The translations under genes and the position numbers were made by a program. Below are positions 25,546 through 32,000 of a DNA stretch of 32,000 nt, piece after piece. Under the pieces are notes generated by a model. That model was not told the DNA's origin and did not search any database. It was given only the letters and a program-made list of their open reading frames with translations. The first letter of the stretch is position 1. Every line of letters starts with the position of its first letter. The stretch covers positions 2,100,001 to 2,132,000 of the forward strand of contig NC_010655.1 of the NCBI RefSeq assembly GCF_000020225.1, written 5' to 3'. Source of the stretch: Akkermansia muciniphila ATCC BAA-835 (GTDB taxonomy: Bacteria > Verrucomicrobiota > Verrucomicrobiia > Verrucomicrobiales > Akkermansiaceae).

Positions 25546-25807
25546 TGCGGCTTTCCGTGAAGGGATGGCCATCCGGAATTTTTTCATTGCTTTAAAGAAC
25601 CGCGCGTGACGGAGGAATAAGTCTTTTTCCTTATTTTGCGCTGGGAAATATTCTTCAGGGGAGGCGCGATGCCATAGTGGTTCTTTCTGCTGAGCACGGG
25701 GTAATTAAGCATTGTATAGATCAATGTATGTGCTACGATTCTTCCGCATTTAATAATCATGCTTTGCCGTTTCCTTGGAACCGGATTAATTTTTCAACTA
25801 ACAGGAT

Positions 25808-26767
25808 ATGAGTAAAATAAGCCATATAAAATATATGGTGCTTTGCAATCTTCCCTACCGTTTGCGGGAAATCGCCGGACGGATTGCGAAGAAATGCAGG
25901 AGAAGGAAAGACCGGTCTCTTGAAGCGAAGCTGGAGGATATTCGCAATTTGCTTATTTATAACCACCCTATTTCCTCAGTTCCCCCGGCGACGGGGAAGT
26001 TGAGGCTCCTTCAGGACGGCAATACGGTTTTGCTGGCCCTTTTTGCGCGCAAATGCCGGGAAAACGGACTGCGGTACTGGCTGGATTACGGCACTTTGCT
26101 GGGGGCGGTAAGGCACAGGGGCTTTATTCCGTGGGATGATGATCTGGATGTGAGCATGATGAGGCCGGAGTTCGACCGCCTGCTGGAACTGCTTCCCGTT
26201 CTTTTCCCCCGTGAGGAAGGATTTACCTGGAACAGGCACGCCTTTCTGCAAATAGGATATGAGGGCACCCCCCTCAACCTTGATGTGTATCCCTATCATT
26301 TTTATGCAGAGAGTCTTTCATCTCCGGAACAGCATGAAAAGCTGGACAGGCTTTTGAGCGGATTTAAGAAAGACGTGGTGCTGGTAGGTTCCAGGATGAA
26401 CCTGACCGATGGGCAGGTTCAGGAGAAAATCCGCCAGGATATTCTGGAAGGAAGGGATGCTGCCGGGGAAGATGAAGCCCCCGGGATTTTTCTTTCTCCT
26501 GCCATTACGTTTACAAAAAACACGCACCTTTCCTATGAAACGTTCTTTCCCCTTGGCTCCGCAGAATTTGAGGGGATAATATTTTCCGTGCCCAACCATG
26601 CCCGCCAGTACCTGCAATTTTTTTACGGCGACTATCTGTCTTATCCGGAACGCATCCAGTTCAAGCATCCTTCCGTGAAGGCCATGGTGGAGAAGGTTCC
26701 CTTTGAGGCGGCGGTCAACCGTTTCATTGACGTTTACGGAAAGCGGATTGATGCGCTCATGCCATGA
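25808..26767 (+). CDS. LicD-family phospho-headgroup (CDP-alcohol dependent) transferase, copy 1
   Basis: The hallmark LicD motif is [30 protein letters not shown]. The stop overlaps the next ATG (ATGA at 26764-26767). ATG 25835 is an alternative start. Confidence 0.88.
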   Translation: [319 protein letters not shown]

Positions 26768-28119
26768 AAACGGTTATTACTTACGGAACCTTTGATTTGC
26801 TGCACACGGGGCACGTGAATCTGCTGAAGAGAGCCCGGAAACTGGGGGACCGGCTCATCGTCGGCGTGACTACGGACAGTTACGACCAGAGCCGCGGCAA
26901 GCTGAATGTCATGGAGAGCCTGGAGGAACGCATGGAAAATGTGCGGAAAACCGGTCTGGCGGATCTCATTATTAAGGAAGAACTAGAAGGGCAGAAGATT
27001 CATGACATACGGAAGTACGGGGCGGATGTTTTTGTGATTGGCTCCGACTGGTCGGGGAAATTTGACTATCTTCGCGATTATTGTGAGGTGGTTTACCTGG
27101 AACGCACCAAGGGCGTTTCTTCAACAGACCTCCGTTCCGCCCGGAATCCCATTGTATATATGGGAATTGCAGGTCACGGGCGCATAGCGGGCCGTTTTCT
27201 CCGGGAGTCCAAATATGTCAGCAATATTGAAATAACAGCCGTTTTCGGAAGGAATGAGGAGAAAGTCCGCCGTTTTGCAGAGTTCCACGCTCTGCTGGAA
27301 TATTATACGGAATACGAACAGTTTCTGGACCGGGTTCATGCCGTTTATATTGCCGTCCCCCATCATCTCCATTATGAAATGGCCAGGAGGGCCCTGTTGC
27401 GGGGGAAGCATGTATTGTGCGAGAAGCCTCTTGCCCTTGCCCGGGAGGAGGCGGAAGAGCTGTTCCGGCTGGCCGAAGAGAAAGGAGTCGTTTTGCTGGA
27501 AGCCCTTAAAACTGCGTTTTGTCCGGCTTTCCAGCAACTGACCAGTTTGGCGGGGAGCGGCATTATTGGTTCCATCAAGGCGGTGGACGCCACGTTTACC
27601 AAGCTGATAGAGGATGAGGCTGCCAGGGAGTATGACCCCATGCAGGCCGGAGGCGCCTGGACGGAACTGGGTTCCTATCCCGCCTTTGTCATTGGGAAGC
27701 TTCTGGGAACCGAGCCCCGCAGGATTCGTTTTGTTACTTGCAGAAAGCCTCATACGGGCGTGGACGTGTTCACGCGCGCGGAATTTCTTTATTCCAATGC
27801 AGTAGCCACCGCCACGGCAGCCATAGGAGCCAAGCAGGAAGGGGACTTGTGCATTACCGGAACGGAGGGGTATATTTATGTGCCGGCGCCTTGGTGGAAG
27901 ACGGAGATGTTTGAAGTGCGGTTTGAGGATGCCCGGCTCAACAGGAAATATTTTGCCAATTTTGAAGGGGATGGGCTGCGTTATGAACTTGGCGCGTTTT
28001 TGCGCCTGATTCATGGCTGCCAGCACGGCAACCGTCTTTTGACCCGTGAGGATTCCGTGTTCATGGCTGATGTTGCCTCCCGTTTCAGGAGAGGGTATTG
28101 CGTGGAAGAGATCAGTTAG
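26764..28119 (+). CDS. Fusion protein: TagD-like (HxGH-type) cytidylyltransferase (aa 1-~130) + Gfo/Idh/MocA-family NAD(P) oxidoreductase (aa ~135-451)
   Basis: The N-terminal part is MKTVITYGTFDLLHTGHVNLLKRARKLGD...RTKGVSSTDLR, carrying the HxGH and RTxGISTT motifs of glycerol-3-phosphate cytidylyltransferases. The C-terminal part is VYMGIAGHGRIAGRF...AVYIAVPHHLHYEMARRALLRGKHVLCEKPLAL, a Rossmann fold plus EKP motif. Confidence 0.85.
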   Translation: MKTVITYGTFDLLHTGHVNLLKRARKLGDRLIVGVTTDSYDQSRGKLNVMESLEERMENVRKTGLADLIIKEELEGQKIHDIRKYGADVFVIGSDWSGKFDYLRDYCEVVYLERTKGVSSTDLRSARNPIVYMGIAGHGRIAGRFLRESKYVSNIEITAVFGRNEEKVRRFAEFHALLEYYTEYEQFLDRVHAVYIAVPHHLHYEMARRALLRGKHVLCEKPLALAREEAEELFRLAEEKGVVLLEALKTAFCPAFQQLTSLAGSGIIGSIKAVDATFTKLIEDEAAREYDPMQAGGAWTELGSYPAFVIGKLLGTEPRRIRFVTCRKPHTGVDVFTRAEFLYSNAVATATAAIGAKQEGDLCITGTEGYIYVPAPWWKTEMFEVRFEDARLNRKYFANFEGDGLRYELGAFLRLIHGCQHGNRLLTREDSVFMADVASRFRRGYCVEEIS

Positions 28120-28216
28120 AAAGAAGAGGCCTTCTTACACCTGTGGAATTCTGGGGTAGTGCCGACGGAACTTTTTCTTGGAACCGTTTTGTTTCGCATG
28201 AATGGAAGCCATCCTA

Positions 28217-31381: not shown

Positions 31382-31492
31382 TTGTTGCCAATACCGTGGA
31401 AAGGGAAGGATAAGGTCTGTCTGCATTTTGGAAAAAGCAGCGTTAATATCATGGAACGGGTGTTTTCTCCGAAAAGGATAATTTGTTTTTCA

Positions 31493-31520
31493 TTGACTTG
31501 TAAAAAGTGGGGGATAAGGT
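31493..31520 (+). promoter_or_regulatory. Candidate sigma70-like promoter for the second LicD gene
   Basis: TTGACT (31493-31498), a 16-nt spacer, then TAAGGT (31515-31520). It lies 74 nt upstream of ATG 31594. The -35 is part of a recurring TTTTTCATTGAYTT motif. This is sequence-pattern evidence only. Confidence 0.3.
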
Positions 31521-31593
31521 TCTGATTCTGCCGGATGTGCTTTCCTGGAAAAATGAATCATATCCTGCGTGTTTTTGACCCAATTTATCTGCG

Positions 31594-32000
31594 ATGAAGC
31601 TGCCATCATTCATTACCGCCGGAAGGACTGGAAAATTAGTAAGGGGAAAGCATTGGTGGGTGACGGAAGTCCGGTGCTGCGGCCTGAAAGTGCTTTCTTC
31701 CTGCACGGATAGGAAAAAGCGTTTCATCCGTTTTTTCGGTATTCCATGCGGACGGTTCAAGGTGGGCCGGGAAGGTGAAGCCTCCCAATTGGGCAAACTG
31801 GTAAAAGCTACCGTTCGGGCCGAGGAGATGCCCCAGGCGTCCGGAGTGCTGAGGATTGTGCAGCAGGCCATGACCTGTTTTTTGAATGAAGTGGCCGGAA
31901 TTCTTGAGGAGGGCGGTTATCCGTACTGGCTTGATTTCGGGACGCTGCTGGGCGCGGTGCGGCACCGGGGCTTTATCCCCTGGGATGACGACCTGGATAT
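31594..32000 (+). CDS. LicD-family transferase, copy 2 (5' partial; runs off the window; not in the supplied ORF track because it has no stop)
   Basis: My translation of the frame in which 31594 is a first codon position is open from 31579 to the window end. It reads ...[57 protein letters not shown]. This matches the copy-1 motif at the protein level with different codons. The start is either ATG 31594 (third-position GC is elevated from ~31650 on) or ATG 31828, which would give a canonical LicD N-terminus. Confidence 0.8.
   Translation, partial: [135 protein letters not shown]

Follow-up and report, generated by a model that had tools for sequence, protein, structure and literature searches.

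What does a five-gene locus of the gut bacterium Akkermansia muciniphila ATCC BAA-835 make with two LicD-family phosphotransferases and two different fusion enzymes, and to what are the products attached? The locus lies at the end of the window, the 32,000-nt stretch of DNA that we analyzed. We find that it very probably puts two different phosphate-linked small groups on a surface sugar chain, one of them predicted to be an unusual opine-like group of amino-acid type. An earlier note on this DNA had proposed two parallel make-activate-transfer routes, with a separate LicD and a separate fusion for each, and comparative genomics shows that the two arms are separable modules. An ORF check of the window placed all five ORFs at exactly the coordinates given in that note:

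25546..25807, no strand: AT-rich spacer 5' of LicD-1, GC 0.435; presumably holds the promoter of the LicD-1/TagD::Gfo operon
25808..26767, plus strand: LicD-1, a LicD-family phosphotransferase of 319 aa (Pfam LicD; ACD05564.1)
26764..28119, plus strand: TagD::Gfo/Idh/MocA fusion of 451 aa (CTP_transf_like and GFO_IDH_MocA; ACD05565.1)
28120..28216, no strand: short spacer where the TagD::Gfo and ODH genes converge, GC 0.464
28217..29266, minus strand: opine-dehydrogenase-family (ODH) protein of 349 aa (Pfam Octopine_DH; ACD05566.1)
29266..31158, minus strand: LicC-like::CobD/HisC-like fusion of 630 aa (NTP_transf_3 and Aminotran_1_2; ACD05567.1)
31159..31593, no strand: AT-rich divergent intergenic region between the fusion-ODH operon and LicD-2, GC 0.389
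31594..32000, plus strand: first 135 codons of LicD-2, a LicD-family phosphotransferase of 338 aa (Pfam LicD) that continues beyond position 32000

Four of the proteins match ACD05564-ACD05567 of strain ATCC BAA-835 at every residue. The LicD-1 and TagD::Gfo genes overlap by 4 nt (CC-ATGA-AA), and the LicC-like::CobD-like fusion and ODH genes by 1 nt on the minus strand (C-TGATG-A), both junctions reading as the earlier note had claimed; the latter two genes are translationally coupled through this overlap. LicD-2 stops ~610 nt beyond the window end (338 aa in the full-length copies L001-L005) and is followed by a glgB-like gene, then by PEGA, SufE, OTCase, sulfatase and PTS genes, so the locus ends with LicD-2. 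It holds no glycosyltransferase, flippase or polymerase, as previously observed. Together with the end at LicD-2, this indicates that the acceptor is built elsewhere, which was one of two options in the earlier note; the other, continuation of the locus past 32000, does not hold.

A profile search supported the family assignments, with all Pfam matches above gathering scores. LicD-1 scores 108.9 bits against Pfam LicD and the LicD-2 fragment 47.9 bits. LicD-1 carries a DDDLD motif at residue 110 and matches FKRP in the PDB (6kaj, E 7e-9); LicD-2 is 38% identical to it, with an identical 20-aa catalytic stretch. No protein of the locus attains an NCBIfam equivalog cut-off.

We put at about 0.5 the probability that the locus is a two-armed LicD-dependent system in which both arms act as proposed here and the acceptor is built elsewhere. 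Two CDP-activated phospho-alcohol donors would be made in the cytoplasm, and their head groups would be transferred to an acceptor, for which a glycan is a candidate and, possibly, a glycolipid or the glycan of a glycoprotein. Direct observations are the genes present and their domain families, the catalytic residues that are conserved, the linkage of the genes in different taxa and the exchange of ODH for another gene in sister lineages; all substrates, products and the acceptor we infer.

In arm 1, the N-terminal 124 aa of the TagD::Gfo protein form a glycerol-3-phosphate cytidylyltransferase-like domain (CTP_transf_like 75.3 bits), and residues ~130-451 an NAD(P) oxidoreductase domain (GFO_IDH_MocA 87.9 bits) with EKP at residue 220. 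All 124 residues of the TagD domain align with S. aureus and B. subtilis TagD (2b7l, E 6e-37; 1coz, E 5e-34), and both signature motifs are present (HTGH at 14 and RTKGVSST at 114); against the NCBIfam TagD equivalog the fusion scores 113.6, with a cut-off of 165.4. Because this part resembles genuine TagD, the probable arm-1 donor is CDP-glycerol or a closely related compound. Homologues of the 451-aa fusion, 55-60% identical to it, occur in Anoxybacillus, Alphaproteobacteria and Elusimicrobia, and in polysaccharide loci they adjoin TagF-like glycerophosphotransferases (L011, L101) or a GT2::LicD fusion (L012). The product of the TagD domain would thus be CDP-glycerol or a polyol analogue very close to it, the Gfo/Idh/MocA part of the fusion would carry out a redox step before or after the cytidylyl step, and LicD-1 would transfer glycerophosphate.

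Arm 2 would begin with the CobD/HisC-like PLP domain (residues ~262-605 of the LicC-like::CobD-like fusion; Aminotran_1_2 100.2 bits), which retains the PLP lysine, K461, and is proposed to make a small phosphate-bearing primary amine. Its likeliest source is O-phospho-L-serine, decarboxylated to give phosphoethanolamine: the best PDB match is 6oux (156 bits), which we take to be a Ser-P decarboxylase, and the fusion scores higher against the NCBIfam CobD model TIGR01140 (158.8 bits; equivalog cut-off 290.6) than against the hisC model TIGR01141 (122.9 bits). Sequence alone fits a decarboxylase or a transaminase, and a transaminase could give serinol phosphate from DHAP (compare Cj1437). Arm 2 would then yield an N-carboxyalkylated serinol phosphate or plain CDP-serinol, its other steps unchanged, an alternative that we consider unlikely but the strongest of those weighed here. 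The HisC/CobD clade holds both activities, and in C. jejuni the DHAP transaminase Cj1437 and the Ser-P decarboxylase Cj1436 are close paralogues. The hisC model score points the same way, as does a match of ~117 bits to 3ftb, deposited as a histidinol-phosphate aminotransferase; the Thr-P decarboxylase CobD (1lc5) scores 112 bits and the remaining HisC-named structures at most 79 bits. In a Marinifilaceae locus (L098), moreover, a second, unfused Aminotran_1_2 and NTP_transferase pair adjoins the cassette, which would fit the production of two different amino-alcohol phosphates by that locus. Against serinol stand the higher decarboxylase scores, and also two independent 2-aminoethylphosphonate clusters (L040, L097) with Ppm, Ppd, an aminotransferase and cytidylyltransferases, which ODH relatives terminate; these favor a 2-aminoethyl over a 2-amino-1,3-propanediol skeleton.

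The phosphate ester would be activated with CTP by the LicC-like domain of the same protein (residues 1 to ~255; NTP_transf_3 45 bits), which carries AAGMGKRL at residue 7 and Glu108. This domain shares an LLxESDLI motif with the aminoethylphosphonate enzyme Tde-PntC, where the motif includes a Glu that hydrogen-bonds the AEP amine. Neither a LicA-type kinase nor LicB or another choline transporter is present. Given this absence and the shared motif, CDP-choline is an unlikely product.

The ODH gene was assigned no role in the earlier note, yet nothing else in arm 2 is as informative. Its product (Octopine_DH 108 bits) keeps a predicted His/Arg/Asp catalytic triad: H198, R302 and D307 align with the catalytic His212, Arg324 and Asp329 of octopine dehydrogenase (3c7a/3iqd; the alignment also includes CENDH, 1bg6). 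Among 42 diverse relatives, His and Arg are present in all 42 and Asp in at least 90%. Among 80 related genome loci, from Akkermansia and many Bacteroidales, 77 have the fusion gene immediately upstream of ODH, and in 53 of them a LicD gene is found within 3 kb; a separate look-up found the same arrangement in an actinobacterial locus. Elsewhere the ODH domain occurs in fused proteins (ODH::LicD, LicD::ODH and CTP_transf_like::ODH).

In sister Akkermansia lineages, the syntenic ODH slot is occupied instead by a gene of the OCD (ornithine-cyclodeaminase)/mu-crystallin family. Each of the nearest characterized relatives of this replacement (Pyr2C reductase, archaeal AlaDH, SbnB, ketimine reductase and iminosuccinate reductase) reduces or dehydrogenates an alpha-imino acid, and we predict that it is an imine reductase. 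Tauropine dehydrogenases, whose substrates are 2-aminoethanesulfonate and pyruvate, are found in the ODH family and, in sponges, in the OCD/mu-crystallin family. Where the fusion occurs without ODH, its neighbors are other amine modifiers: in Fusobacterium a formyltransferase-like gene, in Priestia a gene for an AAC(3)-type N-acetyltransferase. The ODH gene is not a bystander in arm 2. We propose that its product joins the amine to a 2-oxo acid (by default, we guess pyruvate) and, using NAD(P)H, reduces the resulting imine to an N-(1-carboxyalkyl)-2-aminoethyl phosphate, a step that could precede or follow the cytidylyl step, after which the divergently transcribed LicD-2 would transfer the head group. 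A group of this kind, 2-[(R)-1-carboxyethylamino]ethyl phosphate, has been reported as a substituent of Proteus O-antigens. We found no characterized pathway matching arm 2 or the locus, in keeping with the earlier note, which had not recognized the gene combination; the arm-2 cassette is also widespread in gut Bacteroidales, where it is uncharacterized.

Two further explanations are each less probable than the serinol route. The ODH protein might simply reduce a carbonyl, as pneumococcal Gtp1 does (dihydroxyacetone to glycerol), making arm 2 a variant CDP-2-glycerol (gtp1-3/wchX) or other CDP-polyol pathway that yields no opine. Its N-terminal half does also match the Rossmann domains of glycerol-3-phosphate dehydrogenase and ketopantoate reductase. 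By their annotations, the pneumococcal genes gtp1 (glycerol-2-phosphate dehydrogenase), gtp2 (nucleotidyl transferase), gtp3 (phosphotransferase) and wchX (glycerol phosphotransferase) resemble a dehydrogenase, LicC-like and LicD set (PMC1391919). However, the place of gtp3, an annotated phosphotransferase, is taken in the Akkermansia cassette by a PLP enzyme, and an amine-forming enzyme leaves no obvious substrate for a carbonyl reductase. The full triad, including the carboxylate-binding Arg, is moreover kept among the 42 relatives, and the gene that replaces ODH belongs to a family of C=N, not C=O, reductases.

About equally doubtful is the view that the head groups go to a membrane glycolipid or other lipid, as with Mycoplasma fermentans Mf1, or that the CDP-amino-alcohol is the precursor of some soluble or lipid compound. 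Both LicDs have the diacylglycerol cholinephosphotransferase Mf1 as their top NCBIfam match, far under its cut-off (63.6 bits against 225 for LicD-1), and rhizobial-plasmid LicC-like and HisC-like relatives adjoin CDP-alcohol phosphatidyltransferases. The lack of glycan-assembly genes in the locus fits this view too. The two published studies of A. muciniphila lipooligosaccharide do not mention glycerol, ethanolamine or choline substituents, so the acceptor may not be lipooligosaccharide, which likewise suits a lipid. In most other taxa, however, the cassette or TagD::Gfo sits inside polysaccharide loci (Wzx, Wzy, GT2, Glf, TagF-like), which favors a glycan. Least credible is ordinary phosphocholine or phosphoethanolamine decoration beside ordinary CDP-glycerol teichoic-type synthesis, with both oxidoreductases as unrelated passengers: those systems classically comprise LicD, LicC-like and TagD-like proteins, but LicA and LicB are absent, ODH is coupled to the fusion, follows it directly in 77/80 loci and is fused to LicD or cytidylyltransferases elsewhere, and Gfo and TagD form one covalent protein whose family is conserved across phyla.

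The AT-rich spacers described earlier do have low GC, but they do not bracket the five ORFs, since 31159..31593 sits between the LicC-like::CobD-like fusion and LicD-2. That region is identical in five A. muciniphila loci; against sister lineages only about half of it can be aligned, at 79%. The spacer 25546..25807 is also identical in the five, with no inversion polymorphism among them, and a promoter scan of it gave sites no commoner than expected by chance. No convincing terminator was found in 28120..28216.

The lower GC of the module noted earlier is real: 0.509 against 0.585 for window positions 1-25545 (means of 60-nt lines 0.508 and 0.585; Mann-Whitney p = 9e-18), and the four lines counted by hand were exact (0.383, 0.367, 0.367 and 0.667). 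GC3 is 0.53-0.67 in the module genes and 0.69-0.82 in flanking genes on both sides. The window start, positions 1-4500, itself has a GC of only 0.50-0.55, so the fall is moderate. The lower GC does not mark the module as a strain-variable island: synteny of the locus extends to lineages with flanks ~88% identical, and the assembly collection indexes the exact LicC-like::CobD-like fusion protein in 844 blocks.

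The Akkermansia locus is real and well delimited, and it is of a known type, LicD-dependent decoration with phospho-head groups taken from CDP donors. It includes a pair of uncharacterised fusion enzymes, and an embedded imine-reductase step predicts a new head group. A six-frame ORF list recovered all five ORFs at the coordinates and on the strands that the earlier note had given:

25808-26767 (+), LicD-1, the LicD gene of arm 1
26764-28119 (+), TagD::Gfo, a TagD-like cytidylyltransferase fused to a Gfo/Idh/MocA domain, also arm 1
28217-29266 (-), ODH, the opine-dehydrogenase-family gene of arm 2
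29266-31158 (-), a 630-aa fusion of a LicC-like cytidylyltransferase and a CobD/HisC-like PLP domain (hereafter "the fusion"), arm 2
31594 onward (+), LicD-2, the LicD gene of arm 2

Each Pfam family proposed for these proteins was matched above its gathering score, and both reported junctions are present: an ATGA common to LicD-1 and TagD::Gfo, and a minus-strand TGATG in which the fusion stop and the ODH start overlap by one base. LicD-1, TagD::Gfo, ODH and the fusion are identical to ACD05564.1-ACD05567.1 of A. muciniphila ATCC BAA-835, and the exact fusion sequence is found in 844 indexed blocks of the assembly collection.

Upstream of the module lie a TPR gene, a 282-aa protein without a family match, a methyltransferase, a UDPGP-family gene, coaD, dxr and thrS; on the other side, LicD-2 runs beyond the window end to a full length of 338 aa, and next come a glgB-like gene, PEGA, SufE, OTCase, a sulfatase and PTS genes. 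The gene content on both sides therefore sets the module at exactly five genes. None of the five is a glycosyltransferase, flippase or polymerase, and the acceptor must therefore be made elsewhere. This agrees with the first half of the earlier proposal, that the acceptor is built elsewhere or the locus continues past 32000; the second half fails, as the locus stops at LicD-2. The window's other PF01467 gene (20194-20703) was set aside as coaD, a housekeeping gene.

The module has a lower GC content than the rest of the window (0.509 versus 0.585; 60-nt lines, Mann-Whitney p = 9e-18), although the window's first 4.5 kb also reaches just 0.50-0.55, and the four lines counted by hand in the earlier note were exact on recount. 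GC3 is 0.53-0.67 in the five module genes versus 0.69-0.82 in the genes flanking either side. The second AT-rich spacer (31159-31593, GC 0.389), previously read as an outer bracket of the module, is instead the divergent intergenic region between the fusion and LicD-2. A promoter and terminator scan of 25400-32000 gave counts no higher than in shuffled sequence. Phase variation through an invertible promoter in the AT-rich spacers was rejected on present data: across five A. muciniphila loci, neither spacer varies in sequence or orientation. Lineages with ~88% identical flanks keep the module in synteny, and the module itself is more diverged (~79-82%). These features are consistent with a module acquired long ago, or with relaxed codon adaptation at a surface locus that evolves fast, together with cassette-level exchange at the reductase slot; they are at odds with a recent strain-specific island.

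Some other features of the window were recorded alongside. Its lower-GC start holds a 1953-aa autotransporter (318-6179, +), whose PF03797 beta-domain spans residues 1675-1932 and which also has a PATR repeat. The 282-aa protein (24001-24849, +) has a signal-peptide-like N-terminus, a C-terminal ...VYRF and no Pfam or NCBIfam match, and its position adjoining the TPR gene is conserved in sister lineages; it is possibly an outer-membrane beta-barrel. Two long antisense ORFs, one of 580 aa against the TPR/OMP-like genes (23845-25587, -) and one of 712 aa against thrS (14139-16277, -; no Pfam match), are taken to be high-GC artefacts.

Both LicD proteins score above the PF04991 cut-off of 22.6 bits (LicD-1, 108.9 bits; LicD-2 fragment, 47.9 bits) and both contain the acidic DxD-type motif as PWDDDLD, with DDDLD at residue 110 of LicD-1. 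Both are predicted to move a phospho-alcohol group from a CDP donor onto an acceptor. The paralogues are 38% identical overall, and a 76-nt stretch (26074-26149 / 31923-31998) that encodes 20 identical residues is 83% identical at the DNA level; this likeness could reflect strong constraint or local gene conversion.

For arm 1, the donor is likely CDP-glycerol or a very close analogue, because the TagD part matches TagD over its full length with its motifs in place. Residues 1-124 of TagD::Gfo align end to end with the glycerol-3-phosphate cytidylyltransferases of S. aureus (2b7l, E 6e-37) and B. subtilis (1coz, E 5e-34), and the nucleotide-binding motifs HxGH and RTxGISTT appear as HTGH at 14 and RTKGVSST at 114. 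The 451-aa protein represents its own family, with 55-60% identical members in Anoxybacillus, Alphaproteobacteria and Elusimicrobia. Relatives lie beside Wzx and a TagF-like Glyphos_transf gene in an Anoxybacillus eps locus, beside a GT2::LicD fusion in an alphaproteobacterial polysaccharide locus, and in one further case beside GT1 and a TagF-like gene; another stands alone, without relevant neighbours. The TagF-like and LicD-like neighbours in other taxa fit a CDP-glycerol donor. In its TagD match and the TagF-like neighbours of its relatives, arm 1 resembles teichoic-acid-type systems that combine TagD/TarD with TagF- or LicD-type glycerophosphotransferases. It differs from them in that TagD is covalently fused to an oxidoreductase, scores under the TIGR01518 equivalog cut-off (113.6 versus 165.4 bits) and is paired with LicD in a diderm bacterium without teichoic acid. 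The Gfo/Idh/MocA domain resembles dihydrodiol dehydrogenases, xylose dehydrogenases and sugar ketoreductases, and might provide glycerol phosphate reductively, oxidise CDP-glycerol or contribute to making another CDP-polyol. A literature search on the TagD::Gfo fusion found nothing.

The proposal of two make-activate-transfer arms is upheld by gene neighbourhoods across taxa, which show the arms as separable modules. In an ODH-family profile search with one genome per species, at least 572 stretches encoded a relative, and we analysed the best 80 loci. These belong to other Akkermansia species, many gut and rumen Bacteroidales (including Prevotella, Alistipes, Xylanibacter ruminicola and Cryptobacteroides) and one Kiritimatiellae genome. 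Among these best 80 of at least 572, the fusion lies directly upstream of ODH in 77 and a LicD gene within 3 kb in 53, while TagD::Gfo is present in just one, a close relative of the window. Other Akkermansia species have LicD, the fusion and ODH alone, in a different chromosomal context, and an actinobacterial cell-wall polysaccharide locus (WhiB, Glf) shows this fusion-ODH pair again, with LicD close by. A "Chlamydia trachomatis" opine dehydrogenase (P0276), considered as a mislabelled pneumococcal Gtp1, comes from this actinobacterial locus and its cassette.

We examined the PLP domain of the fusion against solved structures. The PLP lysine is kept (K461, aligned to K216 of 1lc5), and the best matches are 6oux (156 bits), deposited as a threonine-phosphate-decarboxylase-like enzyme, 3ftb (117 bits), which its depositors call a histidinol-phosphate aminotransferase, and CobD 1lc5 (112 bits); other HisC-named structures score 79 or less. 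We take 6oux to be SMUL_1544, the Sulfurospirillum serine-O-phosphate decarboxylase that converts phosphoserine to phosphoethanolamine. A plasmid homologue (H48) is annotated with serine-O-phosphate decarboxylase function. The CobD profile TIGR01140 scores 158.8 bits versus 122.9 for hisC, both under their cut-offs (290.55 for the CobD equivalog). The top rank of 6oux and the lead of CobD over hisC lean towards a decarboxylase, although 1lc5 falls slightly below the HisC-named 3ftb and the clade has both activities; a transaminase that converts DHAP to serinol phosphate is possible. The domain also differs from SMUL_1544 and CobD in being fused to a cytidylyltransferase and in having a glycan-decoration rather than a cobamide context.

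The N-terminal domain of the fusion matches LicC (1jyk) and gives a 250-residue alignment to the PntC domain of Tde1415 (6PD1), with LLxESDLI common to both. Tde1415 (PntC-AEPT) of Treponema denticola is a cytidylyltransferase fused to the PLP enzyme that makes its 2-aminoethylphosphonate substrate, and in Tde-PntC the Glu within LLxESDLI hydrogen-bonds the primary amine (Rice et al. 2019, PMC6697681). The Akkermansia protein has the same layout, a LicC-like domain followed by a PLP enzyme that would make the small 2-aminoethyl-P compound to be activated, but its PLP domain is class I/II (CobD/HisC-like, Aminotran_1_2) rather than class V, and it has ODH as a further partner. The 22-kb locus contains neither a PEP mutase nor a phosphonopyruvate decarboxylase (PEP_mutase, TPP enzyme), which argues for a phosphate ester as the product rather than a phosphonate. 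In the most economical reading of these homologies, the PLP domain would decarboxylate phosphoserine and the LicC-like domain would then cytidylylate the resulting phosphoethanolamine, since phosphoserine is a central metabolite and no kinase is required. Arm 2 thereby resembles the Lic pathway (LicA/LicB/LicC/LicD) of S. pneumoniae and H. influenzae in LicC-type CDP activation followed by LicD-family transfer to a surface glycan. Unlike that pathway, the locus and its flanks encode no LicA-family choline kinase or LicB-family choline transporter among their ORFs, the alcohol phosphate would be made de novo by the fused PLP enzyme, the cassette includes a dedicated enzyme of imine-reductase type, and the amine-binding motif is nearer PntC than LicC.

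ODH matches Octopine_DH (PF02317) with 108 bits against a cut-off of 30. Its residues H198, R302 and D307 (the alignment tool counts one lower) line up with His212, Arg324 and Asp329 of OcDH, the octopine dehydrogenase of Pecten (3C7A), and with their CENDH (1BG6) equivalents. In OcDH these form the catalytic triad, with Arg binding the 2-oxo-acid carboxylate. Among 42 diverse relatives, none departs from the His or the Arg, and at least 90% retain the Asp. The phosphonate clusters and the gene swap described below lend indirect support to the predicted activity of ODH, in which an amine and a 2-oxo acid would be condensed reductively with NAD(P)H. It nonetheless belongs to a distinct subfamily, ~20-25% identical to characterised opine dehydrogenases, and is linked to LicD and cytidylyltransferases rather than to anaerobic energy metabolism or crown-gall opines. 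Two further positive residues that OcDH and CENDH lack are R201, which never varies in either alignment, and K274, fixed among the closer relatives; they would suit an anionic, phosphate-bearing substrate.

ODH is integral to arm 2. It is translationally coupled to the fusion and nearly always directly follows it, and relatives occur as ODH::LicD, LicD::ODH and cytidylyltransferase::ODH proteins. Fusion genes without ODH were counted toward the same conclusion, as their neighbours are other amine modifiers. In Fusobacterium vincentii SB055 (L093, 4023-9869), a 49%-identical fusion lies in an O-antigen-type locus with LicD and a formyltransferase-like gene, and a DUF1015 gene stands where ODH would be; in Priestia, an AAC(3)-type N-acetyltransferase adjoins. 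Two unrelated metagenomic loci (L040, 1943-7058; L097, 1448-9473) hold 2-aminoethylphosphonate clusters, with PEP mutase, TPP decarboxylase, aminotransferase and cytidylyltransferases, that end in an ODH relative, which in L097 carries a fused cytidylyltransferase domain. The C-P counterpart of phosphoethanolamine is aminoethylphosphonate, and the gene content suggests that these clusters make N-carboxyalkylated phosphonate head groups.

The strongest evidence for the chemistry of this step is a gene swap within Akkermansia. In a sister lineage (L102) the locus is wholly syntenic from UDPGP to OTCase, with flanks 88-90% nucleotide-identical to the window and amino-acid identities of 92% for the fusion, ~84% for TagD::Gfo and 79-81% for the two LicDs. 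This lineage has no ODH: window positions 28116-29350 are unmatched there, and the ODH slot holds a 319-aa gene of the ornithine-cyclodeaminase/mu-crystallin (OCD) family (L102 10357-11316, -; GC 0.473). Among characterised proteins it is most closely related to Δ1-pyrroline-2-carboxylate reductase, archaeal alanine dehydrogenase, SbnB, ketimine reductase and iminosuccinate reductase, all of them NAD(P)-dependent redox enzymes that work on the C=N bond of alpha-imino acids. Two unrelated families with imine-reductase chemistry in one slot argue that the slot would perform reductive N-carboxyalkylation, not ketone reduction. Both types are well populated, with 181 and 414 members in the OCD-type 90%-identity clusters and 410 in the type-strain ODH cluster. 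OCD-type members are named "Akkermansia muciniphila" (PNC53442.1 and others; genome ~2.86 Mb) or "Akkermansia sp." (~3.1-3.2 Mb), and a third lineage (L013) retains ODH at 80% identity.

Tauropine dehydrogenase, which acts on 2-aminoethanesulfonate and pyruvate, belongs to the ODH family in molluscs and annelids and to the OCD/mu-crystallin family in sponges. This two-family occurrence mirrors the Akkermansia swap, and the substrate is isosteric with aminoethylphosphonate and close to phosphoethanolamine; by analogy, the enzyme would be a close biochemical precedent.

A known equivalent of arm 2 might be sought in the pneumococcal CDP-2-glycerol pathway, reportedly described by Wang et al. 2010 as gtp1-gtp3 with wchX. 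Compared by annotation only, that pathway likewise pairs a dehydrogenase and a LicC-like nucleotidyltransferase with a phosphotransferase, the set adding a small phospho-alcohol to capsule (Bentley et al. 2006, PMC1391919). Its gtp3 is annotated as a phosphotransferase where arm 2 has a PLP enzyme, which speaks against identity; equivalence is considered improbable. Literature text searches for gtp1-3 as an equivalent of arm 2 found nothing beyond gene annotations.

Together, we put at roughly 0.4 the probability of the following reading. A. muciniphila, several hundred gut and rumen Bacteroidales species and some actinobacteria would place a hitherto unassigned "phospho-opine" head group, N-(1-carboxyalkyl)-2-aminoethyl phosphate, on a surface glycan by way of a cassette of three genes, a phosphoserine decarboxylase::cytidylyltransferase fusion, an imine reductase and LicD, and the epitope would differ between human Akkermansia lineages according to an ODH-type (type strain) or OCD-type (other phylogroups) reductase. 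N-carboxyethyl-ethanolamine phosphate groups are chemically known from Proteus O-antigens, and this reading, if true, would supply their biosynthetic route. Literature searches for carboxyethylamino-ethyl phosphate, and for opine dehydrogenase together with LicD, yielded nothing relevant.

The locus predicts two phosphodiester-linked surface substituents without a report in published LOS structures, and a phylogroup difference within Akkermansia at one gene slot. Two A. muciniphila LOS structure papers do not mention glycerol, ethanolamine or choline, and a capsule paper does not mention these genes; harsh deacylation could have removed phosphodiester groups from LOS samples. Capsule, glycoprotein and glycolipid are all candidate acceptors. 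A. muciniphila is a candidate next-generation probiotic whose envelope molecules are studied as immune effectors, and with the arm 2 cassette present in very many gut and rumen Bacteroidales genomes, the assignment would annotate a common microbiome surface chemistry that now stands under generic family names.

Several homologues were noted in other settings. OCD-type homologues of 50-55% identity occur commonly in MAGs of Bacteroidaceae and Prevotellaceae and in Dysgonomonas, Methanosarcina and Omnitrophota, and a plasmid collection searched for OCD-type relatives outside Akkermansia gave distant matches only. One 661-aa Akkermansia member of the OCD cluster (P0521) carries the name "NTP transferase domain-containing protein"; it could stem from read-through, or the OCD gene and the adjacent fusion gene may truly be joined. 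A fusion homologue on Priestia megaterium pBM700 (33% identical) was rejected as an orthologue for its different, secondary-metabolite-like context. An ODH-family match in Proteus mirabilis (H63, L099), considered as an O-antigen gene, proved to lie beside a PALP enzyme in a siderophore-type cluster (7964-10134) with IucA/IucC, a TonB-dependent receptor and an Orn/Arg-decarboxylase-like gene, where an SbnA-like PALP precedes the Octopine_DH-family gene, and it has no relation to glycan decoration; we take the corresponding position in the S. aureus siderophore cluster to be held by the OCD-family SbnB. Finally, symbiosis plasmids of Rhizobium, Bradyrhizobium and Mesorhizobium (H36-H38) carry three-gene sets in which a HisC-like aminotransferase is accompanied by a LicC-like cytidylyltransferase and a CDP-alcohol phosphatidyltransferase; these sets may make an amino-alcohol phospholipid head group.
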